Below, one piece after another: positions 1 through 20,824 of a DNA stretch of 26,910 nucleotides. The stretch's first letter is position 1. The number at the start of each line of letters is the position of its first letter. The notes beneath the pieces were generated by a model. The model did not search any database, was not told the DNA's origin, and saw nothing but the letters and a program-made list of their open reading frames with translations. The stretch lies in the UHGV virus genome UHGV-0040495; one strand, 5' to 3'. The stretch is from a virus. The position numbers and the translations under genes were made by a program.

Positions 1-1
1 T

Positions 2-76
2 GTCCTCTTAGTTAAATGGATATAACGAGCCCCTCCTAAGGGCTAATTGCAGGTTCGATTCCTGCAGGGGACACCA
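2..76 (+). tRNA. argW: tRNA-Arg (anticodon CCU)
   Basis: 75-nt sequence GTCCTCTTAG...GGTTCGATTCCTGCAGGGGACACCA folds as a cloverleaf: anticodon stem AGCCC/GGGCT, loop CTCCTAA with U33 and anticodon CCT, T-loop GGTTCGATTCC, 3' terminal CCA. Matches my recollection of enterobacterial argW, a known prophage integration site. Confidence 0.9.
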
Positions 77-171
77 TTTATCAGTTCGCTCCCATCCGTA
101 CCAGTCCGCAAAATCCCCTGAATAGCAAGCCTTCCATAGATTCACAGTTCGTAATGGTTCGCGTCAGATCG

Positions 172-201
172 TTGACAGCCGCACTCCATGACGGGTAAAA
201 A
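172..201 (+). promoter_or_regulatory. Candidate sigma70 promoter for the integrase
   Basis: TTGACA at 172-177, followed 17-18 nt later by an A-rich -10-like hexamer (GTAAAA/TAAAAA, 195-201). A 9-bp direct repeat TTTTACCCA (215-223 and 230-238) lies between it and the start codon. Sequence-only prediction. Confidence 0.25.
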
Positions 202-237
202 GTGGATAAAATAATTTTACCCACCGGATTTTTACCC

Positions 238-1398
238 ATGCTCACCGTTAAGCAGATTGAAGCAGCAAAGCCGAAAGAAAAACCATACCGCCTTCTCGAT
301 GGTAATGGCCTGTACCTTTATGTCCCTGTGTCAGGGAAAAAGGTATGGCAGCTTCGCTACAAGATTGACGGTAAGGAGAAAATCCTGACTGTCGGAAAAT
401 ATCCGCTTATGACTTTGCAGGAGGCAAGGGATAAAGCATGGACTGCGAGGAAAGACATCTCGGTTGGCATAGATCCGGTAAAAGCGAAAAAGGCTTCGTC
501 TAACAACAACTCCTTTAGTGCCATTTACAAGGAATGGTACGAGCACAAGAAGCAAGTGTGGTCTGTAGGGTATGCGACTGAACTTGCCAAAATGTTTGAT
601 GACGACATTTTACCCATCATCGGCGGTCTCGAGATTCTGGATATTGAGCCGATGCAACTGCTGGAAGTAATCCGCAGATTTGAAGATCGCGGTGCAATGG
701 AGCGAGCCAACAAAGCCCGCAGAAGATGCGGCGAGGTTTTCCGTTACGCTATTGTCACTGGTAGGGCTAAATATAACCCGGCACCTGACCTTGCTGACGC
801 CATGAAGGGATACCGCAAGAAAAACTTCCCGTTTCTTCCTGCAGACCAGATCCCGGCATTTAACAAAGCACTGGCAACATTTTCAGGAAGCATCGTATCG
901 CTCATTGCGACCAAGGTTTTACGCTATACAGCCCTAAGAACGAAAGAGCTTCGTTCCATGCAATGGAAGAACGTCGATTTTGAAAACAGGATTATCACCA
1001 TCGACGCCAGTGTGATGAAGGGTCGCAAAATTCATGTGGTTCCTATGTCAGACCAGGTGGTTGAACTTCTCACTACGCTAAGCTCAATCACTAAACCAGT
1101 ATCAGAGTTTGTTTTTGCCGGTCGCAACGATAAGAAGAAGCCAATCTGCGAGAACGCGGTATTGCTTGTGATCAAACAAATCGGCTATGAGGGTCTGGAA
1201 AGCGGTCACGGATTCAGGCATGAATTCAGCACAATTATGAACGAGCACGAATGGCCTGCTGACGCTATTGAAGTGCAACTGGCACATGCCAACGGCGGAT
1301 CTGTGCGCGGTATTTACAACCATGCGCAGTATCTCGATAAGCGCAGAGAAATGATGCAGTGGTGGGCTGATTACATCGATGGTCGCGCAGGAGAGTAA
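238..1398 (+). CDS. intS: Tyrosine site-specific integrase, P4-like family
   Basis: ORF in the track is 202..1398 with a GTG start; I prefer the ATG at 238 because P4-type integrases begin with the arm-binding motif (MLTVKQIEAAKPKEKPYRLLDGNGLYLYV...). Catalytic C-terminal region with R...HGFRH...Y (GHGFRHEFST, RGIYNHAQY). Sits immediately downstream of tRNA-Arg. The intS symbol is by recollection of the E. coli argW-adjacent integrase and is unverified. Confidence 0.85.
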   Translation: MLTVKQIEAAKPKEKPYRLLDGNGLYLYVPVSGKKVWQLRYKIDGKEKILTVGKYPLMTLQEARDKAWTARKDISVGIDPVKAKKASSNNNSFSAIYKEWYEHKKQVWSVGYATELAKMFDDDILPIIGGLEILDIEPMQLLEVIRRFEDRGAMERANKARRRCGEVFRYAIVTGRAKYNPAPDLADAMKGYRKKNFPFLPADQIPAFNKALATFSGSIVSLIATKVLRYTALRTKELRSMQWKNVDFENRIITIDASVMKGRKIHVVPMSDQVVELLTTLSSITKPVSEFVFAGRNDKKKPICENAVLLVIKQIGYEGLESGHGFRHEFSTIMNEHEWPADAIEVQLAHANGGSVRGIYNHAQYLDKRREMMQWWADYIDGRAGE

Positions 1399-1402
1399 GC
1401 CA

Positions 1403-2434
1403 TTACGCGAATTCTTCCACGATCGCCATGCCAGTAGCACCATCACCACCGGTAAATGCCGTACCGGTAAACCCAAGGTCATACGCGCCACCACCACCGG
1501 ATCCGGGAGCTGCGCCAGCAATACCGGCCTGAGAACCCGCCCGGCCACCGCCGCCAAAATACGACGCCCCACCGTTGCCCGTCAGAAGGCTTGACCCTGT
1601 CTGGCCATCTGAGCCGGTACCACCGTTGATCCTGATATCTCCGGTCGCCGCCGTACCTCCGGCGCCGCCGGCGGTATTGGACACGCCTGACTTCACTCCT
1701 CCTTTCCCGCCAGGAGCTGAGAACAGGCTGGCAAACGAGGTGGCCCCACCATCCGCACCACTTACTGCGCCAACTCCGCCCTTACCACCCTTGCCGACAG
1801 TAATCGCATAAGAACTGGCAGCAGACAGGTCAACCCATACGATAATGGTCGCGCCCGCGCCGCCGCCAGCACCGGAGAAGGTTTCTGTATTGTTGGAGGC
1901 CTGGCAGCCGCCACCGCCGCCACCGGCACCGGTCAACGTTACTTTTGCATAACGGGCCAGAGGAGATCGCGTATAGGTTCCGTTTGCATAGAAAGCTTTT
2001 GGAGCGCCAAGTGAACGCCCGACAAAACCAGAGGAATCAGATATTCCGAGGTTATAACGGGCTTCATTTATCGCATCCTCACCGGCATCTTTAATTTCTG
2101 ACAGGTTATTGCTGATCTGCAGGAATGATAACAATGATCCGGCGGTCATTAAATTCGCGACAATGTCATTCGTTGACCATACGCGTGCCGTAGTTCCTTC
2201 CTGACCACGAATTACTGTCATCACGTCACCGGATACAGACGTGACGTGCATAATTTCAGAAATTGTTTTCGTGGCCGCGTCGGTTATCGTTAATTTGAAA
2301 TAACTCTGCCCAGATACAGGGGAAGGGAATAATGACCCCGCTCCAGTACCCACGGTAATAACGGTAGCGGACGCGCTAATACCCGCAGCGAGCACACTCT
2401 TTGCGTTATTATTGGCTAATAGCTTCAGCGCCAT
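1403..2434 (-). CDS. Tail fibre protein 2: conserved N-terminal anchor domain plus glycine-rich C-terminal domain
   Basis: 343 aa. The N-terminal ~100 aa (MALKLLANNNAKSVLAAGISA...SYFKLTITDAAT...QEGTTARVW..NDIVANLMTA) is paralogous to the N-terminus of the 715-aa fibre at 4143..6290. The C-terminal half is dense in poly-Gly motifs (GAGGGGGGC, GKGGKGG, GGAGGTAATG, GSGGGG). Start has GGGG 7 nt upstream. Confidence 0.6.
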   Translation of the reverse strand: MALKLLANNNAKSVLAAGISASATVITVGTGAGSLFPSPVSGQSYFKLTITDAATKTISEIMHVTSVSGDVMTVIRGQEGTTARVWSTNDIVANLMTAGSLLSFLQISNNLSEIKDAGEDAINEARYNLGISDSSGFVGRSLGAPKAFYANGTYTRSPLARYAKVTLTGAGGGGGGCQASNNTETFSGAGGGAGATIIVWVDLSAASSYAITVGKGGKGGVGAVSGADGGATSFASLFSAPGGKGGVKSGVSNTAGGAGGTAATGDIRINGGTGSDGQTGSSLLTGNGGASYFGGGGRAGSQAGIAGAAPGSGGGGAYDLGFTGTAFTGGDGATGMAIVEEFA

Positions 2435-2445
2435 ATATACCCCAG

Positions 2446-2763
2446 TTAAATAATAGAATTATCGGAACGAACAACGCAGATAATAAACGTCACGACGCCG
2501 ATGACAGTAACATCGTCCAGGGCTTCGCCATCGATCGCTTCACCATCTTCAGTAATCAGTGACTTTCCTCTCAGCGTGGCAAGCTCCGTCCCGCCGCCGT
2601 GCTGTATAAGTAGTTGGCTACCCTGCTTTGGCTTCAGGGAGATATCCAGTACAACGTAACCACCAGATCGCTCGAAAACTAGCGTGTTTGGGCCGACATT
2701 GCAGATCGAGTTAACAGACAACCTTTGCTCGACGTAGTCCGTCGCTGGTGAAGGGAATCCCAT
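2446..2763 (-). CDS. Hypothetical protein (105 aa) with hydrophobic C-terminal segment; accessory (moron) gene
   Basis: Track ORF is 2446..2796. I prefer the internal ATG at 2763..2761 because it is preceded by GGAGG 9 nt upstream and overlaps the stop of the upstream gene (TAATG). C-terminal VTVIGVVTFIICVV is hydrophobic. AT-rich relative to flanking phage genes. Confidence 0.4.
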   Translation of the reverse strand: MGFPSPATDYVEQRLSVNSICNVGPNTLVFERSGGYVVLDISLKPKQGSQLLIQHGGGTELATLRGKSLITEDGEAIDGEALDDVTVIGVVTFIICVVRSDNSII

Positions 2764-3002
2764 TAGATCACCCTCCCCATGTTGGCCATCAGCCATAAAC
2801 GGTTTTCGCTATGGTCCGGCGTCTTATCGACGAAATACGTCTGCTCGCGTGCGATCCAGGAGTTCGCCTCCACCTCGGATAAGTGGATGCCGCGCCGGAG
2901 CAGTGCGGTAACGAAGTCTCGGGTGTGAAGGTACTGGAACCCCTTGGAACTGCGCAAAATGGACTCGCGGAAAGCCGCGGCGATGTCTGACTGACGGTGC
3001 AT
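2763..3002 (-). CDS. Hypothetical protein (79 aa); first gene of a two-gene accessory operon
   Basis: Track ORF extends to 3155, but the extension lies in an AT-rich intergenic region. The ATG at 3002..3000 is preceded by AGAGG 7 nt upstream. Its stop overlaps the next gene's start by 1 nt. No recognisable motif. Confidence 0.4.
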   Translation of the reverse strand: MHRQSDIAAAFRESILRSSKGFQYLHTRDFVTALLRRGIHLSEVEANSWIAREQTYFVDKTPDHSENRLWLMANMGRVI

Positions 3003-3167
3003 GATCTGCCTCTGATTGATACTGTTTTTATATACAGTAGTTTCATCAAAGAGTCGGATCAATACTTGATGATGACTTTGTTTTATCTTCCGGTAGCCTC
3101 TTAAATTGCTTTTCACACAACTAATTGATACCAATACGTGTTTTATCCAAGACACTCCGCCACCAAA
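3003..3167. promoter_or_regulatory. AT-rich divergent intergenic region, probable promoter region for the flanking accessory genes
   Basis: About 165 bp of AT-rich sequence between a minus-strand start (3002) and a plus-strand start (3168). Contains TTGATG and TGTATATAA elements on the minus strand. No confident -35/-10 assignment. Confidence 0.25.
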
Positions 3168-3377
3168 ATGAGTACAAAAAGTGACACTCTTGTTCGTAGA
3201 ATACTACGTAAATCAGATGGCCTGGGCCTCAAGCTCAGCAAGTCTGGGATCGACTACGAGACCCTACAGTCACATGGATGGGCTGAAGTTTCAGATGGCA
3301 CTAACACGATAATGGTGGAGCTTACTGATGGCGGTAAATTGCAATTCTTCTCATGTGTCAAACATCTGAGCGCATAA
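3168..3377 (+). CDS. Hypothetical small protein (about 69 aa) transcribed opposite to the structural operon
   Basis: ATG at 3168 (the track uses GTG at 3138). Ordinary amino-acid composition but no clear Shine-Dalgarno and no recognisable motif. Convergent with the 252-aa gene. Confidence 0.3.
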   Translation: MSTKSDTLVRRILRKSDGLGLKLSKSGIDYETLQSHGWAEVSDGTNTIMVELTDGGKLQFFSCVKHLSA

Positions 3378-3381
3378 CTCG

Positions 3382-4140
3382 TTATTGCATCGCCAGTAAA
3401 AACTGAGAGACAGATATTTTTTCTGCTGAGGTAAGAATGCCGTTCATCAACAGACAAGACTTAATGTACTTGGTACTTGTTTCGCTGTTGTTATCAGTTT
3501 TTCTACCAAGCAGTACATTATTAGTACCTGCCACCCTGGTCCCGGGAAATGTTTCACTCCCGGAAATAAGAGTTCCAGTTTCAGGATTAAATATATCTAC
3601 TGTAACGGAGCCTTGAGTTATCGATGCGCAAAATGCAAACATATCTCCGACTGCGATTGCGGTTGGGAATGTAGCGTAAGCATAACCAGCTGAAGATTGT
3701 CCGTTATTTTGTCCAACACAAAAAAGACTTCCTGTGCCGTTTGTAAACCCTACCGAAAAACCACTTGCAGCAGACCCACTGCCAGCAAAATCTGCAATCA
3801 TATGGGCGTTAAGTGATGCGCCTGCTGGATTGCGCTTGGCAACCCCACAAACAGATAATGACAGAGTAGCCTTCTGATTAGTATCCATGTAATCTGTTGT
3901 ATTTACAGATATATATCCAGGAGAATTGTTTACATTTCCATGAATGACTGCCGGAGAATCTTTATTATAAGAGTTGTAGGTTATGTCGGTTACGGGGTCC
4001 CCAAAATAGAAACCAGCATAAGGAGTTGCACCTGTGGTTGGCAGGCCAATAAACCAGTTTGACACATCAAAGTCAGATAAAGTTTTCATTCCAGAGATAA
4101 CTGGAAGAGTGGCGTCTATATAAATAGCTGATATCGGCAT
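3382..4140 (-). CDS. Beta-rich Gly/Ser/Thr/Asn-rich protein translationally coupled to the esterase tailspike; possible fibre-associated adhesin or receptor-binding module
   Basis: 252 aa. Start lies 2 nt after the stop of the 715-aa fibre gene. Composition is typical of phage receptor-binding or distal-fibre domains. AT-rich codon usage. Confidence 0.4.
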   Translation of the reverse strand: MPISAIYIDATLPVISGMKTLSDFDVSNWFIGLPTTGATPYAGFYFGDPVTDITYNSYNKDSPAVIHGNVNNSPGYISVNTTDYMDTNQKATLSLSVCGVAKRNPAGASLNAHMIADFAGSGSAASGFSVGFTNGTGSLFCVGQNNGQSSAGYAYATFPTAIAVGDMFAFCASITQGSVTVDIFNPETGTLISGSETFPGTRVAGTNNVLLGRKTDNNSETSTKYIKSCLLMNGILTSAEKISVSQFLLAMQ

Positions 4141-4142
4141 TA

Positions 4143-6290
4143 TTAAGCTCCCAGGAAAAATTCTTTTTTGATCTTTCTCGTTAGTACATATGCGCCCAAG
4201 GCGCTAAGATGCAAGGCATCTTCCCACGCACCTCCTGAACTGCTATACACTTTGGGGAATAATTGATAACCACTAATGAAATTTACATTATATTCAACCG
4301 CTATTTCCCTCATTGCTTTATCGTATTCTGACAGTGCGGGTGTTCCTGTGGCGTTACACTGTGCAGGGGACATAAGGCAAATGCAAATATCAGGAGTTGC
4401 GCTTCTATATTTAGTAATGATTTCAATAATCCCAGATTTGTACTCAGCTAGCCCCTGACTCATCCGGAAGTCATTCGTTCCAAGAATAATAAAAAGGAGG
4501 TCTATATCAAGGTATTGAGCTACTGGCTTTATCCATGATGAAAAGTTGAAATAGTCACTTGCAAATGCTCCTCCATTACCCATCCTGGATACAGTCACCC
4601 CTGATGATATTGAGTTATTTTTACCATACATACCAAGAATGGAAACAACACCAGTACCGGTGCTTTGGATTGTCACCGTATGTGCAGTAGCGCTAAGTCC
4701 GCTGAAATCATACTTCTTGGCAGTCCCTGTATTCCCTCCCGTGATTGTTACAGGTGCATTGCTGTCGATGGTGATGGTGAACGTTCCAGACCCATCATAG
4801 TAAAATACCGAAAGATTTGTTACGGTCACGCCCGTCCATACGAGCGAACCAACAGTGTTGTTGTTGTAGTATCCGTTGCCATCAGGGCCACAGCCATACG
4901 GCGGAATGTTCGTGTTATTGCTGCCACCGTCATATTTCGTAAAGTTTGTTGCGGTTACTGGTGATATTCCAGACATGACACCATCTGTTCTGTTTGAACA
5001 ACTAATCCAGCCAGGGTCTTTGTATGTACCACCAAGAATATTAATTAAAGACTGAGGAATGGTGTTTTTCTCTGTCCACGAATCGCCGGTAAAAGCAATG
5101 TTTAGGCTGGTAGACTGGCCAGCAAAAATACGGCTATTTTTGAAAAGGAACTTGTACTGATCTCCTTCGATGAAGGAACGTACCGCATCAACTTCCCCAC
5201 CAGACACCAGGTTTTTGACATATTCCTGCAATACCGGGCCAAGACCTGGAGCATCGAATAGCCCACCATTAAACCAAGCATATACGTTCCCTTGTTGGTC
5301 ATATAAAAAAGGAAAGTAATAAGGTGAAAAGTCTCCTTGCGGTATAAACTTCTGGGCCCATTCGTTTGGAATTTCAGAAACAACCTGTGTAACATTTGGC
5401 CCCAGTCCGGCCACATCAAATTTTCCGCCATCAAACCATGCTGGCACCATACCATTCCTGTCAAAGAAGGCCGGGAAATAACCAGGCCTGTATTCACCTG
5501 GGACGAGGCGTTCATTAATTTTATTATCGATTGTTTTTGAAGAAGGAGAGATTACTCCTGTAGGCTGCAAAGTTCCGGAGTTGTTTATATATTCATTTGC
5601 AAGAGAGCTATCATCCGCGCTTGTCACCCAGCATTTCGCTCCTGGCTGTATGTTCCCTGCGTCAGCATCAGCCTGTGCCGCAGCCAGCGTCGGAAACTCG
5701 CGGGTTGTCCCTGTTATGGCCGCTGTACCCGGCTGCTTCGCCTGCAGTACGGCCACACCTGCTTTGTTTTGATACTGCCATGCAGCAGAAAGCGCATCTG
5801 GCCCCTGGGCTACCCAGAACGACTGGCCGTCAGTAGTTGCTGCCAGCCCTGCGATGGTGCCATCAGGATCGCTGGCAGTCTTATAGAACGTGAACTTATT
5901 CTGTGCGTAGTCAGAAGCGTTATTTGCAAACTCTTCAGCCTGTGCTGCTGATGCAGCTGCTTGCTGCATGTACTGCGCAATCACATTCAGCGTATCCGCC
6001 GTCATCATGTTGGCAACCATGTCGTTTGCCGCCCACGCACGCGCCAGCGTTCCTTCCTGCGCACGCTCAATCGTGAAGATGTCTCCAGCCTTAGCAGTCA
6101 CGTTCACGATCTCAACCTGTGAGCCGGTGGCGGCATCGGTGAGAGTGAGTTTAAAGTAGCTCTCGCCTGCCACAGCGTCAGGGAACTCGGCACCAGTTCC
6201 AGCGCTAACGATCAGCGACGTGTCGGTTGCGCTGATAGCAGAAGCCAGCGTGCTTTCTGCGTTGTTTGTAGCCAAAAGGGTTAGTGCCAT
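4143..6290 (-). CDS. Tail fibre/tailspike protein 1 with C-terminal SGNH (GDSL-type) esterase domain
   Basis: 715 aa. N-terminal anchor paralogous to fibre 2. C-terminal region carries SGNH blocks: FTGDSW (block I GDS), LGTNDF (block III GxND) and DALHLS (block V DxxH). GGAGG Shine-Dalgarno 5-6 nt upstream of the ATG at 6290. Confidence 0.75.
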   Translation of the reverse strand: MALTLLATNNAESTLASAISATDTSLIVSAGTGAEFPDAVAGESYFKLTLTDAATGSQVEIVNVTAKAGDIFTIERAQEGTLARAWAANDMVANMMTADTLNVIAQYMQQAAASAAQAEEFANNASDYAQNKFTFYKTASDPDGTIAGLAATTDGQSFWVAQGPDALSAAWQYQNKAGVAVLQAKQPGTAAITGTTREFPTLAAAQADADAGNIQPGAKCWVTSADDSSLANEYINNSGTLQPTGVISPSSKTIDNKINERLVPGEYRPGYFPAFFDRNGMVPAWFDGGKFDVAGLGPNVTQVVSEIPNEWAQKFIPQGDFSPYYFPFLYDQQGNVYAWFNGGLFDAPGLGPVLQEYVKNLVSGGEVDAVRSFIEGDQYKFLFKNSRIFAGQSTSLNIAFTGDSWTEKNTIPQSLINILGGTYKDPGWISCSNRTDGVMSGISPVTATNFTKYDGGSNNTNIPPYGCGPDGNGYYNNNTVGSLVWTGVTVTNLSVFYYDGSGTFTITIDSNAPVTITGGNTGTAKKYDFSGLSATAHTVTIQSTGTGVVSILGMYGKNNSISSGVTVSRMGNGGAFASDYFNFSSWIKPVAQYLDIDLLFIILGTNDFRMSQGLAEYKSGIIEIITKYRSATPDICICLMSPAQCNATGTPALSEYDKAMREIAVEYNVNFISGYQLFPKVYSSSGGAWEDALHLSALGAYVLTRKIKKEFFLGA
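5235..5492 (-). repeat. Internal tandem duplication (two ~31-aa repeats) within tail fibre 1
   Basis: YRPGYFPAFFDRNGMVPAWFDGGKFDVAGLGP (aa ~267-297) and FSPYYFPFLYDQQGNVYAWFNGGLFDAPGLGP (aa ~322-352) share the pattern YFP..D..G.V.AWF.GG.FD..GLGP. Confidence 0.55.
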
Positions 6291-6312
6291 GTCTCCTCCG
6301 GGATATAGGCAT

Positions 6313-6341
6313 AAAAAAACCCGCCGAAGCGGGTTAGTTTT
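6313..6341 (-). terminator. Rho-independent terminator downstream of the lipoprotein gene
   Basis: On the minus strand, stem ACCCGC/GCGGGT with a 4-nt loop is followed by a U7 tract. It lies between the lipoprotein stop (6359) and the fibre start (6290). Confidence 0.6.
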
Positions 6342-6358
6342 TGTTGATTACTCTTGTT

Positions 6359-6991
6359 TTAATATGCATTTCGTATCGTTGTTGTTGCATCATCAATTCC
6401 GTTCTTGCTTAGAATCCAACATGATCTTGCAACATCAGCAAATTGACTTCTTACTTCAGGTGATAACCCTGGCTCTTGGTTAACGTCATTTAACATTTGC
6501 TCCAAAGAAATACCTCGCCTCTGACCGATACCAGCAGCACGGCAAAGGTTCCTTATATACAAATCAAACTCAGCTTGGTCATATTTATTTCTGGCCATAA
6601 CCAAGTAATAAACGCTATTGAGTTCATTCGATGCATTCATTACTTCCCTGCTTCTAACACATGAAACGTCTTTGTCGCACTTCTGATTATTTAGCCTATC
6701 AACCTCTTTTGAATAGTAATCATAAGTGCAACTTTCATCTTTTGAGTTGAAGCAGGTTAAAACAAGACCATTAAGAAATGCTTCATTCTCGCCATTCAAA
6801 CCAATTAACTCATTCCTTATTTTGGGGAAATTTTGCAATTGACCATTATATGATGGCATCCATTTAATTAAGGCATCTCTTTTTTCTTGCAAAGTTTCAG
6901 CAGAAGAAAAATCTCTAGATTTTTTATAAGCATTCGTTCCACATCCAGCAAGAAAAAATGAAATTGTTAATACAAGTATCATTCTTTTCAT
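6359..6991 (-). CDS. Cysteine-rich lipoprotein (moron-encoded); candidate superinfection-exclusion or envelope factor
   Basis: 210 aa. N-terminal MKRMILVLTISFFLAGCG is a signal peptide with lipobox L-A-G-C. Mature part has several Cys. AT-rich gene flanked by its own promoter-like element and terminator, inserted between baseplate and tail-fibre genes. Confidence 0.75.
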   Translation of the reverse strand: MKRMILVLTISFFLAGCGTNAYKKSRDFSSAETLQEKRDALIKWMPSYNGQLQNFPKIRNELIGLNGENEAFLNGLVLTCFNSKDESCTYDYYSKEVDRLNNQKCDKDVSCVRSREVMNASNELNSVYYLVMARNKYDQAEFDLYIRNLCRAAGIGQRRGISLEQMLNDVNQEPGLSPEVRSQFADVARSCWILSKNGIDDATTTIRNAY

Positions 6992-7011
6992 AACGACCCC
7001 GGAGAATTTTA

Positions 7012-7051
7012 TTGATGCATAAATTCTACACTATTAGTGCATTGCATCAAT
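7012..7051 (-). promoter_or_regulatory. Candidate promoter with flanking inverted repeat (operator-like) upstream of the lipoprotein gene
   Basis: On the minus strand: -35 TTGATG (7050..7045), 16-nt spacer, -10 TAGAAT (7028..7023). Inverted repeat ATTGATGCA (7011-7019) and TGCATCAAT (7043-7051) brackets the promoter. Confidence 0.35.
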
Positions 7052-19963: not shown

Positions 19964-20824
19964 TTAAAGTAAGACCAGCGCGCAGCTGTCGGTGTTGTTC
20001 CAGGTAAGGAAGCCCGTAGCGCTGTCATAGCTGACAGTTTTAGAGTTCCCACTCTCGATGGAGATGACTTTCACCGGCAGGGTGATGTCTGCCTGAGCCA
20101 CAGCGCCGATAGCGCCCTGCGTGGTCGCGGAGCCTCCCGGCGCGCTGGCAGGCGCATAGGTGAAGGTTGTCGTACTCGGTACGGTCAGCACAACGACGGT
20201 GCCGTTATAGGCAGCCGGATCTACGCCGCTGATCTTCACGTACTGGCCTGCAGTCAGACCATGTGCAGAGGCAGTGGTGGCGGTGGCCACGCCATTCGAG
20301 TAGGTAACAGCGGTCGTGTCAATGTCAGCACCGGCAAAAGCCGCCGCGGCTGCGGTGGTCACCTGGTTATTGACGAAGTCCCACGCCAGCGGCGTTTTCA
20401 CCGATGCGCCAGCGGTTCCGAGCGCTACCACCTGCGCTGAAGCTTTCAGCGGAACGCGCATGTTGGATCCAAGGCGGTAGAATGAAACGCTCATGCCGGA
20501 CGCATACAGCGGAACCGGTGATTGCGGAGTGGTAAGGCCGTTGTGGGCCTGGTTGAAGACGGTGAAGCCTTCGAGTTCAGCCAGTGACACAGCGCGACGA
20601 ATAGTCGACCCGCGAGGACTGGAGTTCACGCCGGGCAGCAACTCGGCAACCGGCAGGCCACCCCACAGCGGTTTGGTTTCGGTGGCGGCGACAGTGCCGG
20701 ACGCCAGGTTAAAGCGATTTGCCGGATCATCCAGAGCAACGCCCTGAATGAAGCCATCAGACTGCACACCGAAGGAACCAGCGGCATTCGTGGTCGCCAT
20801 CGGGTTAAGAGATAAATTAGCCAT
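19964..20824 (-). CDS. Capsid-associated structural protein (decoration or scaffold-like; uncertain)
   Basis: 286 aa, Ala/Thr/Gly/Val-rich and beta-like, between the scaffold-like gene and the capsid gene. Confidence 0.35.
   Translation of the reverse strand: MANLSLNPMATTNAAGSFGVQSDGFIQGVALDDPANRFNLASGTVAATETKPLWGGLPVAELLPGVNSSPRGSTIRRAVSLAELEGFTVFNQAHNGLTTPQSPVPLYASGMSVSFYRLGSNMRVPLKASAQVVALGTAGASVKTPLAWDFVNNQVTTAAAAAFAGADIDTTAVTYSNGVATATTASAHGLTAGQYVKISGVDPAAYNGTVVVLTVPSTTTFTYAPASAPGGSATTQGAIGAVAQADITLPVKVISIESGNSKTVSYDSATGFLTWNNTDSCALVLL

Follow-up and report, generated by a model that had tools for sequence, protein, structure and literature searches.

The element considered here is an island at positions 2446-3377 of a 26,910-nucleotide stretch of the virus genome UHGV-0040495 (hereafter the window), which by its sequence is one end of an Escherichia coli prophage integrated at a tRNA-Arg gene (argW). 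The island carries two overlapping minus-strand genes, for proteins of 79 and 105 amino acids (aa), and a divergent 69-aa open reading frame (ORF). It is probably an SOS-regulated prophage moron from a umuD-type operon, of the same type as humD of phage P1 and gp23 of phage phiKO2 and accompanied here by a winged-helix partner, and we infer that its UmuD'-like product acts as a substitute for UmuD'. LexA-controlled phage umuD' genes are already known from P1, N15, and phiKO2, and those of P1 (humD) and phiKO2 (gp23) lie at this position, so that the island is not the wholly undescribed module that an earlier annotation made from the letters alone (the first-pass annotation) thought it likely to be. 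What is new is the strictly coupled and uncharacterised winged-helix gene, the minimised UmuD' core, and a promoter and operator that copy those of umuDC.

Promoter and gene layout of the island

The gene pair and the signals associated with it are the following.

2763-3002, minus strand: gene for the 79-aa protein, predicted to be a winged-helix protein (PHROG 3893, function unknown)
2446-2763, minus strand: gene for the 105-aa UmuD'/HumD-like protein, predicted to be pre-processed and protease-dead
3009-3013, minus strand: putative Shine-Dalgarno sequence AGAGG of the 79-aa gene, read from the sequence, 6 nucleotides (nt) ahead of the ATG at 3002
2772-2776, minus strand: putative Shine-Dalgarno sequence GGAGG of the 105-aa gene, read from the sequence, 8 nt ahead of the ATG at 2763
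3057-3062, minus strand: putative -35 hexamer TTGATC, exactly 17 nt upstream of TACTGT
3020-3039, minus strand: predicted LexA (SOS) box TACTGTATATAAAAACAGTA, whose left half TACTGT (3039-3034) is the putative -10

The two minus-strand genes, their stop/start overlap, and their own Shine-Dalgarno sequences had all been described in the first-pass annotation and were borne out. The overlap, through which the two genes would be translationally coupled, is TAATG, formed by the TAA of the 79-aa gene (2765-2763) and the ATG of the 105-aa gene (2763-2761), and the GGAGG of the 105-aa gene sits within the conserved last codons (M-G-R) of the 79-aa gene. Both proteins belong to conserved families, with 41-90% identity over about 15 genera, and synonymous changes outnumber non-synonymous ones in both genes (32:12 and 23:18, relative to a copy diverged by 15%), which together indicate that both genes are real. 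The description of the island as a low-GC insertion of roughly 1 kb, on the other hand, did not survive. The guanine-plus-cytosine (GC) content of the whole region is 48.5%, compared with 52.4% for the window, the two genes of the pair have 50.0% and 57.5%, and only the spacer between the pair and the divergent ORF (3003-3167, 165 base pairs [bp], 36.4% GC) is AT-rich; the neighboring 252-aa gene has a lower GC content than the island. The segment 3020-3380 is unusually conserved at the DNA level, with 5.8% differences compared with 17-24% in its flanks, which fits a recently exchanged mosaic block, and a search of positions 2300-3600 against Rfam returned no match.

The spacer contains a consensus LexA box, at 3020-3039, that is absent from the first-pass annotation. 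This box, TACTGTATATAAAAACAGTA, has two mismatches to the 20-mer LexA consensus, and none of 100 shuffled versions of the window matched that well; it holds a perfect CTGT-N8-ACAG and is identical over 20 bp to the box upstream of umuD in E. coli K-12. The K-12 umuDC promoter also has the same TTGATC at the same 17-nt spacing, and the leader GGCAGAT of the 79-aa gene recurs, in similar form, in the umuD leader. From the shared -35, spacing, identical box, and similar leader, the island is predicted to carry a umuDC-type sigma-70 promoter that the 20-bp operator overlaps and LexA represses. A comparative scan, which covered one genome per species, recovered 48 loci in about 15 enterobacterial genera, 40 of them with an intact start. 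TTGATC is found at the same spacing in nearly all of 40 related loci, and a perfect CTGT-N8-ACAG lies 32-41 nt ahead of the ATG in 33 of the 40, with a box carrying one mismatch at that place in 6 more. A consensus promoter scan missed the promoter of the island, which matches at 7 of 12 positions, and it was the comparative alignment that revealed it. The likeness to umuDC continues into the second protein, which is homologous to UmuD from Gly25 to the C terminus, whereas umuDC has umuC, a 24-residue prodomain, a cleavage site, and a catalytic dyad, all four of which the cassette lacks; relative to the promoter, the place of the prodomain is occupied by the separate 79-aa ORF. A second CTGT-N8-ACAG (CTGTCATAGCTGACAG) occurs at 20022-20037 inside a structural gene and is probably a chance occurrence, because its spacer is G+C-rich and it has more than 3 mismatches to the 20-mer consensus.

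The two proteins of the pair

The first-pass annotation recognized no family for any of the three proteins and proposed sensitive profile searches for all of them. Such searches placed the 105-aa protein in PHROG 3469, named UmuD-like (E 1e-44), and the 79-aa protein in PHROG 3893, of unknown function (E 8e-38), so the claim falls for both members of the pair; the 69-aa ORF found no profile match. A profile-profile comparison (hhalign) of the 105-aa family with P1 HumD gave 98.3% probability (E 2e-14) over the full length. When compared with PDB sequences, with UmuD confirmed against K-12, the 105-aa protein aligns with UmuD exactly from Gly25, the first residue of UmuD': M-GFPSPATDYVEQR falls on UmuD 25-GFPSPAADYVEQR, and the homology runs to the C terminus. 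Since it begins at the equivalent of Gly25, the protein would need no RecA-stimulated cleavage, and a search for an Ala/Cys-Gly cleavage site with a preceding N-terminal segment found none, as the protein starts at the Gly.

An alignment of UmuD', phiKO2 gp23, and related long forms with the short form of the family (104-107 aa) indicates what the short form has lost. Eleven residues are missing over UmuD 58-GDSMIDGGISD, the loop of the Ser60 nucleophile, a deletion of 11-12 residues that is present in all short forms, and 13 residues are missing further along. The column of Lys97 holds Thr in the subgroup of the window, whereas Lys is kept in other short forms. With the catalytic Ser60 loop and Lys97 both gone, the 105-aa protein, as aligned, cannot act as a peptidase. 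None of 40 family members matches Pfam Peptidase_S24 (PF00717), and the name 'S24/S26 family peptidase' that PGAP occasionally assigns is misleading in light of this null result and of the lost catalytic residues.

The 105-aa protein has a predicted UmuD'-type beta fold with a C-terminal dimerization strand, and this fold is close to the C-terminal domains of LexA, lambda CI, and 186 CI, which serve as oligomerization modules. A fold search of BFVD found only the family itself. The hydrophobic end remarked upon in the first-pass annotation does exist as a segment, VTVIGVVTFIICVV, but the prediction for it (residues 86-96) is a beta-strand, which falls on the C-terminal strand of UmuD' in the alignment, and not a membrane segment. 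The reading of this tail as a membrane anchor was accordingly considered and rejected, given the alignment to UmuD' and the Arg that homologues carry within the counterpart of the strand (VEVLGRVTFFINR).

These properties leave the original interpretation of the pair, as a toxin-antitoxin, abortive-infection, or other defense or anti-defense module, highly improbable. Two small overlapping genes at a known prophage cargo hot spot, of which the upstream one encodes a small DNA-binding-type protein, would suit such a module, as would the reverse-transcriptase element inserted at the same spot in a Klebsiella pneumoniae copy (described below). The layout of small, overlapping, co-transcribed genes is not specific to toxin-antitoxin systems, however, and neither Pfam nor NCBIfam nor PADLOC provided a toxin, antitoxin, or defense match; for PADLOC-DB, this covers the three ORFs and the 252-aa neighbor at E 0.1 or better. 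The protein that would be the toxin is a UmuD' homologue with the predicted UmuD' fold, its hydrophobic end is a predicted beta-strand, and the promoter is a copy of that of umuDC.

A separate observation concerns the extreme C terminus of the 105-aa family, for which the window (2446-2470), loci L011-L047, and P1 HumD (in L072, 11585-11971) were compared. In most members of the family, as in P1 HumD, the last residues form an acidic-Pro-hydrophobic tail (EFDDCPVI, DDGLPI, DDIPL, DDGCPF), which is present in 88 of 119 Enterobacter-type sequences and is degenerate in the subgroup of the window (RSDNSII / RSDSLAV). The tip of the SSB C terminus is DFDDDIPF, which the family tails resemble, and the tail of most members could recruit, or compete for, SSB-binding proteins.

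For the 79-aa protein, no match was found in Pfam (where DinI, PF06183, was also without a match), NCBIfam, PADLOC, or PDB sequences. Its family is small and compact: at 50% identity it has 68 representatives in a set of 1.84 billion proteins, and nearly all of the 68 are about 79 aa long. An AF2 model from an alignment of 25 sequences (pLDDT 91, pTM 0.81, order H-E-H-H-E-E) confidently predicts a stand-alone winged-helix fold. The family showed no similarity to the N-domain of E. coli LexA (hhalign probability 0.1%) or to P1 Lxr, and it has only the general winged-helix fold class in common with the former.

A winged-helix protein encoded ahead of a UmuD'-like one raises the question of a two-piece, non-cleavable regulator resembling LexA or UmuDAb, in which the winged helix would bind DNA and the UmuD'-like protein would dimerize. 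We consider this distinctly unlikely, although a good deal about the pair is compatible with it. The winged-helix fold is confidently predicted, the second gene begins exactly at the position where LexA-type proteins are cut, the coupling of the two genes is strict, the fold of the second protein is near that of the oligomerization domains noted above for LexA and the two CI repressors, and the sizes of 79 + 104 residues resemble the 84 + 118 residues of the two parts of LexA. The regulator would be made only after LexA has been destroyed and would repress or activate specific phage or host promoters. It is likewise doubtful, but conceivable, that a non-covalent, uncleavable LexA-like complex serves as the damage-triggered transcription switch of the prophage or as a feedback brake on the host SOS response. 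To our knowledge, such a 'pre-cut repressor' design has not been described before. The one-chain layout of LexA and UmuDAb, a DNA-binding N-domain followed by an S24 domain, was not found in the island, where the two parts are separate genes. Two database proteins, P0304 (178 aa) and P0265 (99 aa), do join the 79-aa domain in-frame to a UmuD'-like domain, but they need not be true fusions: their lengths suggest small indels near the overlap, so mutation or assembly may have produced them.

In Acinetobacter, the UmuD-family protein UmuDAb and a small (~80 aa) lineage-specific partner, the co-repressor DdrR, take part in the DNA-damage response (PMC11332147). A UmuD-family protein with a small partner is common to that system and the cassette. 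UmuDAb is a cleavable repressor that includes an N-terminal DNA-binding domain, and ddrR is transcribed divergently, whereas the UmuD'-like protein of the cassette has no DNA-binding domain and, as predicted above, cannot cleave, and the gene of its partner precedes its own within one operon.

The 3' end of the 79-aa gene is rearranged in several relatives (P0084, P0099, and P0018, from Raoultella and Klebsiella, and the HK225 locus L056 4001-4908), where it merges into a DNA invertase fragment (resolvase/HTH_7) or where an invertase gene replaces the UmuD'-like gene. This indicates recurrent rearrangement at the 3' junction of the 79-aa gene, near invertible tail-fiber segments.

Relatives, spread, and proposed role of the cassette

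P1 HumD and N15 gp26 are, like the 105-aa protein, phage-borne UmuD' homologues that lack a prodomain and start with MGFPSPA, and in both phages a LexA site stands ahead of the gene and no umuC is present, as in this cassette. An acidic/hydrophobic C-terminal tail is a further shared trait. According to the P1 record, HumD complements E. coli UmuD', and a LexA site precedes its gene. HumD has 129 aa, whereas the protein here has 105 and is without two internal segments, including the whole Ser60 loop. The arrangement in P1 is lxr, LexA site, humD; there is no winged-helix gene, and the divergent lxr is unrelated to the 79-aa gene. The 79-aa gene family is not confined to the short form, as the second protein, usually short, is a HumD-type long form of 123-129 aa (68% identical to P1 HumD) in three loci. 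In the Klebsiella phage phiKO2, the UmuD-like gp23 has the same genome position, after the tail genes, and is read away from an intergenic LexA site. In that phage, dinI and the UmuD-like gene flank one annotated LexA site, and PMC7556043 cites control of the dinI-like gene by LexA. The phiKO2 UmuD-like gene (127 aa) directly follows the operator, whereas in the island the 79-aa gene is interposed and the UmuD-like protein is of the short form; moreover, the divergent gene in phiKO2 is dinI, whereas the divergent ORF in the window is not DinI-like. Ten of the related loci resemble phiKO2 in having a dinI-like gene divergent from the same intergenic region, found by phmmer with the DinI proteins of phiKO2 and of E. 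coli as queries.

In every intact locus, the second gene starts on the stop of the first (TAATG or TGATG), and its product begins MGFPSPA. The pair is located after tail genes, beside int/att or at the prophage edge, and its hosts include lambda-like phages and prophages (RothC, HK225, Midgardsormr38), P22-like prophages (after gtrABC), and prophages with invertible Mu/P2-type fibers. The block comprising the pair and the downstream glycine-rich gene is about 91% identical in the Klebsiella phage RothC, and this homology stops at window position 3043, just outside the promoter, from which we take the mobile unit to be the promoter, the 79-aa gene, and the 105-aa gene, followed here by the glycine-rich gene. 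Together with the occurrence of the pair in unrelated prophages, this boundary upholds the earlier view of the island as an accessory unit, or moron, that lies where the late/tail region ends and has a promoter of its own. The cassette is common in E. coli and Klebsiella prophages; the 90%-identity clusters of its proteins contain thousands of Klebsiella and E. coli sequences. Of 5,426 complete E. coli genomes, 32 have this exact region, and many of the 32 come from clinical carbapenemase producers. In K. pneumoniae GCA_026006535.1 (L060 929-2853), an element of 1.9 kb with a gene for a 495-aa reverse transcriptase (Pfam RVT_1) has inserted precisely between the LexA box and the 79-aa gene start (the equivalent of window 3010/3021), so that the pair is uncoupled from the promoter in this copy. 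The element may be a group II intron or another reverse-transcriptase element.

The mobility of the cassette also bears on whether it could encode an antirepressor. LexA-controlled antirepressors act in Gifsy phages and phage 186, and an S24-like protein under SOS control might heterodimerize with the C-terminal domain of a CI-type repressor and thereby trigger or cross-trigger prophage induction. This is very unlikely here, as both this prophage and RothC have a full-length CI (annotated as LexA-family and as CI, with a length that fits an S24 domain), which should cleave itself, and as the module passes between unrelated phages irrespective of their immunity regions, which does not suit a partner of one specific repressor.

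If the cassette is instead a UmuD'-type moron under SOS control, LexA would hold the pair off in the lysogen, and DNA damage, through LexA cleavage, would induce it immediately, before or alongside induction of the prophage. Late read-through would probably also express the pair, together with the downstream glycine-rich fiber gene. The UmuD'-like protein would dimerize via its conserved C-terminal strand and act on the conserved SOS or translesion machinery of the host; the movement of the cassette among unrelated phage types at prophage ends speaks for such a conserved target in the host and against one specific to a phage. The likeliest target would be UmuC, with the protein standing in for UmuD' in ready-made form, as its relative P1 HumD does; UmuC is the first candidate because of the homology with HumD, which the P1 record describes as complementing UmuD'. 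Such substitution would help damaged DNA, of the phage and of the host, to be replicated. The winged-helix protein would be an obligate partner that binds the UmuD'-like protein or tethers it to DNA, a role supported by the constant adjacency of the two genes and their stop/start overlap.

Several points weigh against this proposal. LexA binding, expression, and activity with UmuC are all deduced from sequence comparison. The 105-aa protein scores 45.8 bits (E 5e-12) with the NCBIfam HumD model NF051876, for which the cut-off is 120 bits, and thus fails it. The short form lacks the two loops, of 11 and 13 residues, that are present in UmuD' and HumD, and Peptidase_S24 was not matched by any of the family members scanned. 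In view of the lost loops, the failed HumD cut-off, and the missing Peptidase_S24 match, the short form may have diverged in function. The UmuD residues in contact with RecA, which are Y52, D91, E93, and F94 (PMC9926225), are not evidently conserved in it. Finally, P1, N15, and phiKO2 manage without the winged-helix gene. The lost loops, the poorly conserved RecA contacts, and the extra winged-helix partner leave room for a damper of the SOS response, as well as for the split regulator and the antirepressor considered above, all of which we rank lower.

The damper would be a UmuD'-like dimer that, with or without the winged-helix protein, binds RecA filaments (RecA*) or host UmuD/UmuD' without activating Pol V, and that in the manner of DinI limits mutagenesis or the cleavage of LexA and CI, protecting the phage genome or tuning induction. 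We think it unlikely, but it has a clear rationale: the pair often adjoins dinI-like genes with which it has a LexA-controlled intergenic region in common, the loss of the UmuD'/HumD loops is expected for a mimic that only binds, and one and the same groove of RecA serves UmuD, LexA, CI, and DinI (PMC9926225). The RecA-contact residues of UmuD are nevertheless not clearly conserved in the short form, and HumD, the closest tested relative, activates mutagenesis and does not block it, according to the note in the P1 record.

The distinction between the UmuD' substitute and the damper has consequences for the host. If the 105-aa protein is HumD-like, prophages with this cassette would give their hosts instantly active UmuD' upon DNA damage, and mutation rates or survival could rise under fluoroquinolones and other SOS-inducing drugs; if it is a damper, mutation rates or survival under such drugs would fall. 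The winged-helix protein of PHROG 3893 is in addition a defined and testable partner for the phage UmuD' homologues, which have long been unexplained.

The divergent ORF and the surrounding prophage

The remaining features of this part of the window are the following.

3168-3377, plus strand: 69-aa ORF of doubtful status, open from its ATG and divergent from the pair
1403-2434, minus strand: glycine-rich tail-fiber-like gene, 343 aa (Pfam Gly_rich_2, 8.5e-14; tail-fiber PHROGs)
3382-4140, minus strand: 252-aa gene of unknown function, 41.8% GC
4143-6290, minus strand: SGNH/GDSL tail fiber, 715 aa

The AT-rich spacer of 165 bp and the oppositely oriented 69-aa ORF beyond it are present as the first-pass annotation described them, but the ORF is only a weak candidate for a gene. 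Its frame is open in every variant seen, and it falls in a cluster of 22 sequences from E. coli and K. pneumoniae. No Shine-Dalgarno sequence precedes it, and it matched no family in Pfam, PHROG, or NCBIfam and no phage by tblastn. Its synonymous and non-synonymous changes are about 1:1, no better than in one antisense frame, and PGAP annotates it in one of the four records inspected. Neither a Pfam match nor a phmmer relative, with phiKO2 or E. coli DinI, connects it to DinI. The ORF also lies outside the mobile unit that is common to the window and RothC.

The placement of the island between tail-fiber genes was confirmed, the flanks being the glycine-rich gene on one side and, beyond the 252-aa gene, the SGNH/GDSL fiber on the other. 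The order on the minus strand is tail genes, the 715-aa SGNH/GDSL fiber, the 252-aa gene, the island, and the glycine-rich gene, after which comes intS on the plus strand. A gap of 11 nt separates the 105-aa gene from the glycine-rich gene that follows it on the same strand. No terminator-like site turned up in this interval, and the two genes are probably co-transcribed. The N-terminal ~110 residues of the 343-aa glycine-rich protein and the 715-aa SGNH/GDSL fiber are alike (MAL.LLA.NNA…YFKLT.TDAAT), and this similarity suggests two alternative receptor-binding proteins on one anchor.

Over window positions 1-6321, the identity to E. coli strain 361 is 99.8%, and that strain has tRNA-Arg and intS at this place. 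The integration module (window 1-1398 and the strain 361 record) is of the KplE1/CPS-53 type. In this arrangement, intS lies beside tRNA-Arg at one end of the prophage, and the excisionase gene torI lies at the opposite end, about 45 kb away. Outside this end, the prophage is lambda-like: it has genes for CI, which is annotated as a LexA-family regulator, and for Cro, CII, Q, and lysis, and torI is the gene at its far end. In this part of the window, the segment that is truly low in GC is 6322-7048 (32-40% GC), which contains a minus-strand ORF (6359-6991, 210 aa) with a lipoprotein signal (…LAGC) and a weak match to Pfam LPAM_1. The prophage of strain 361, otherwise 99.8% identical, has a different stretch of ~272 nt in its place, and this exchange marks 6322-7048 as a separate, variable moron.

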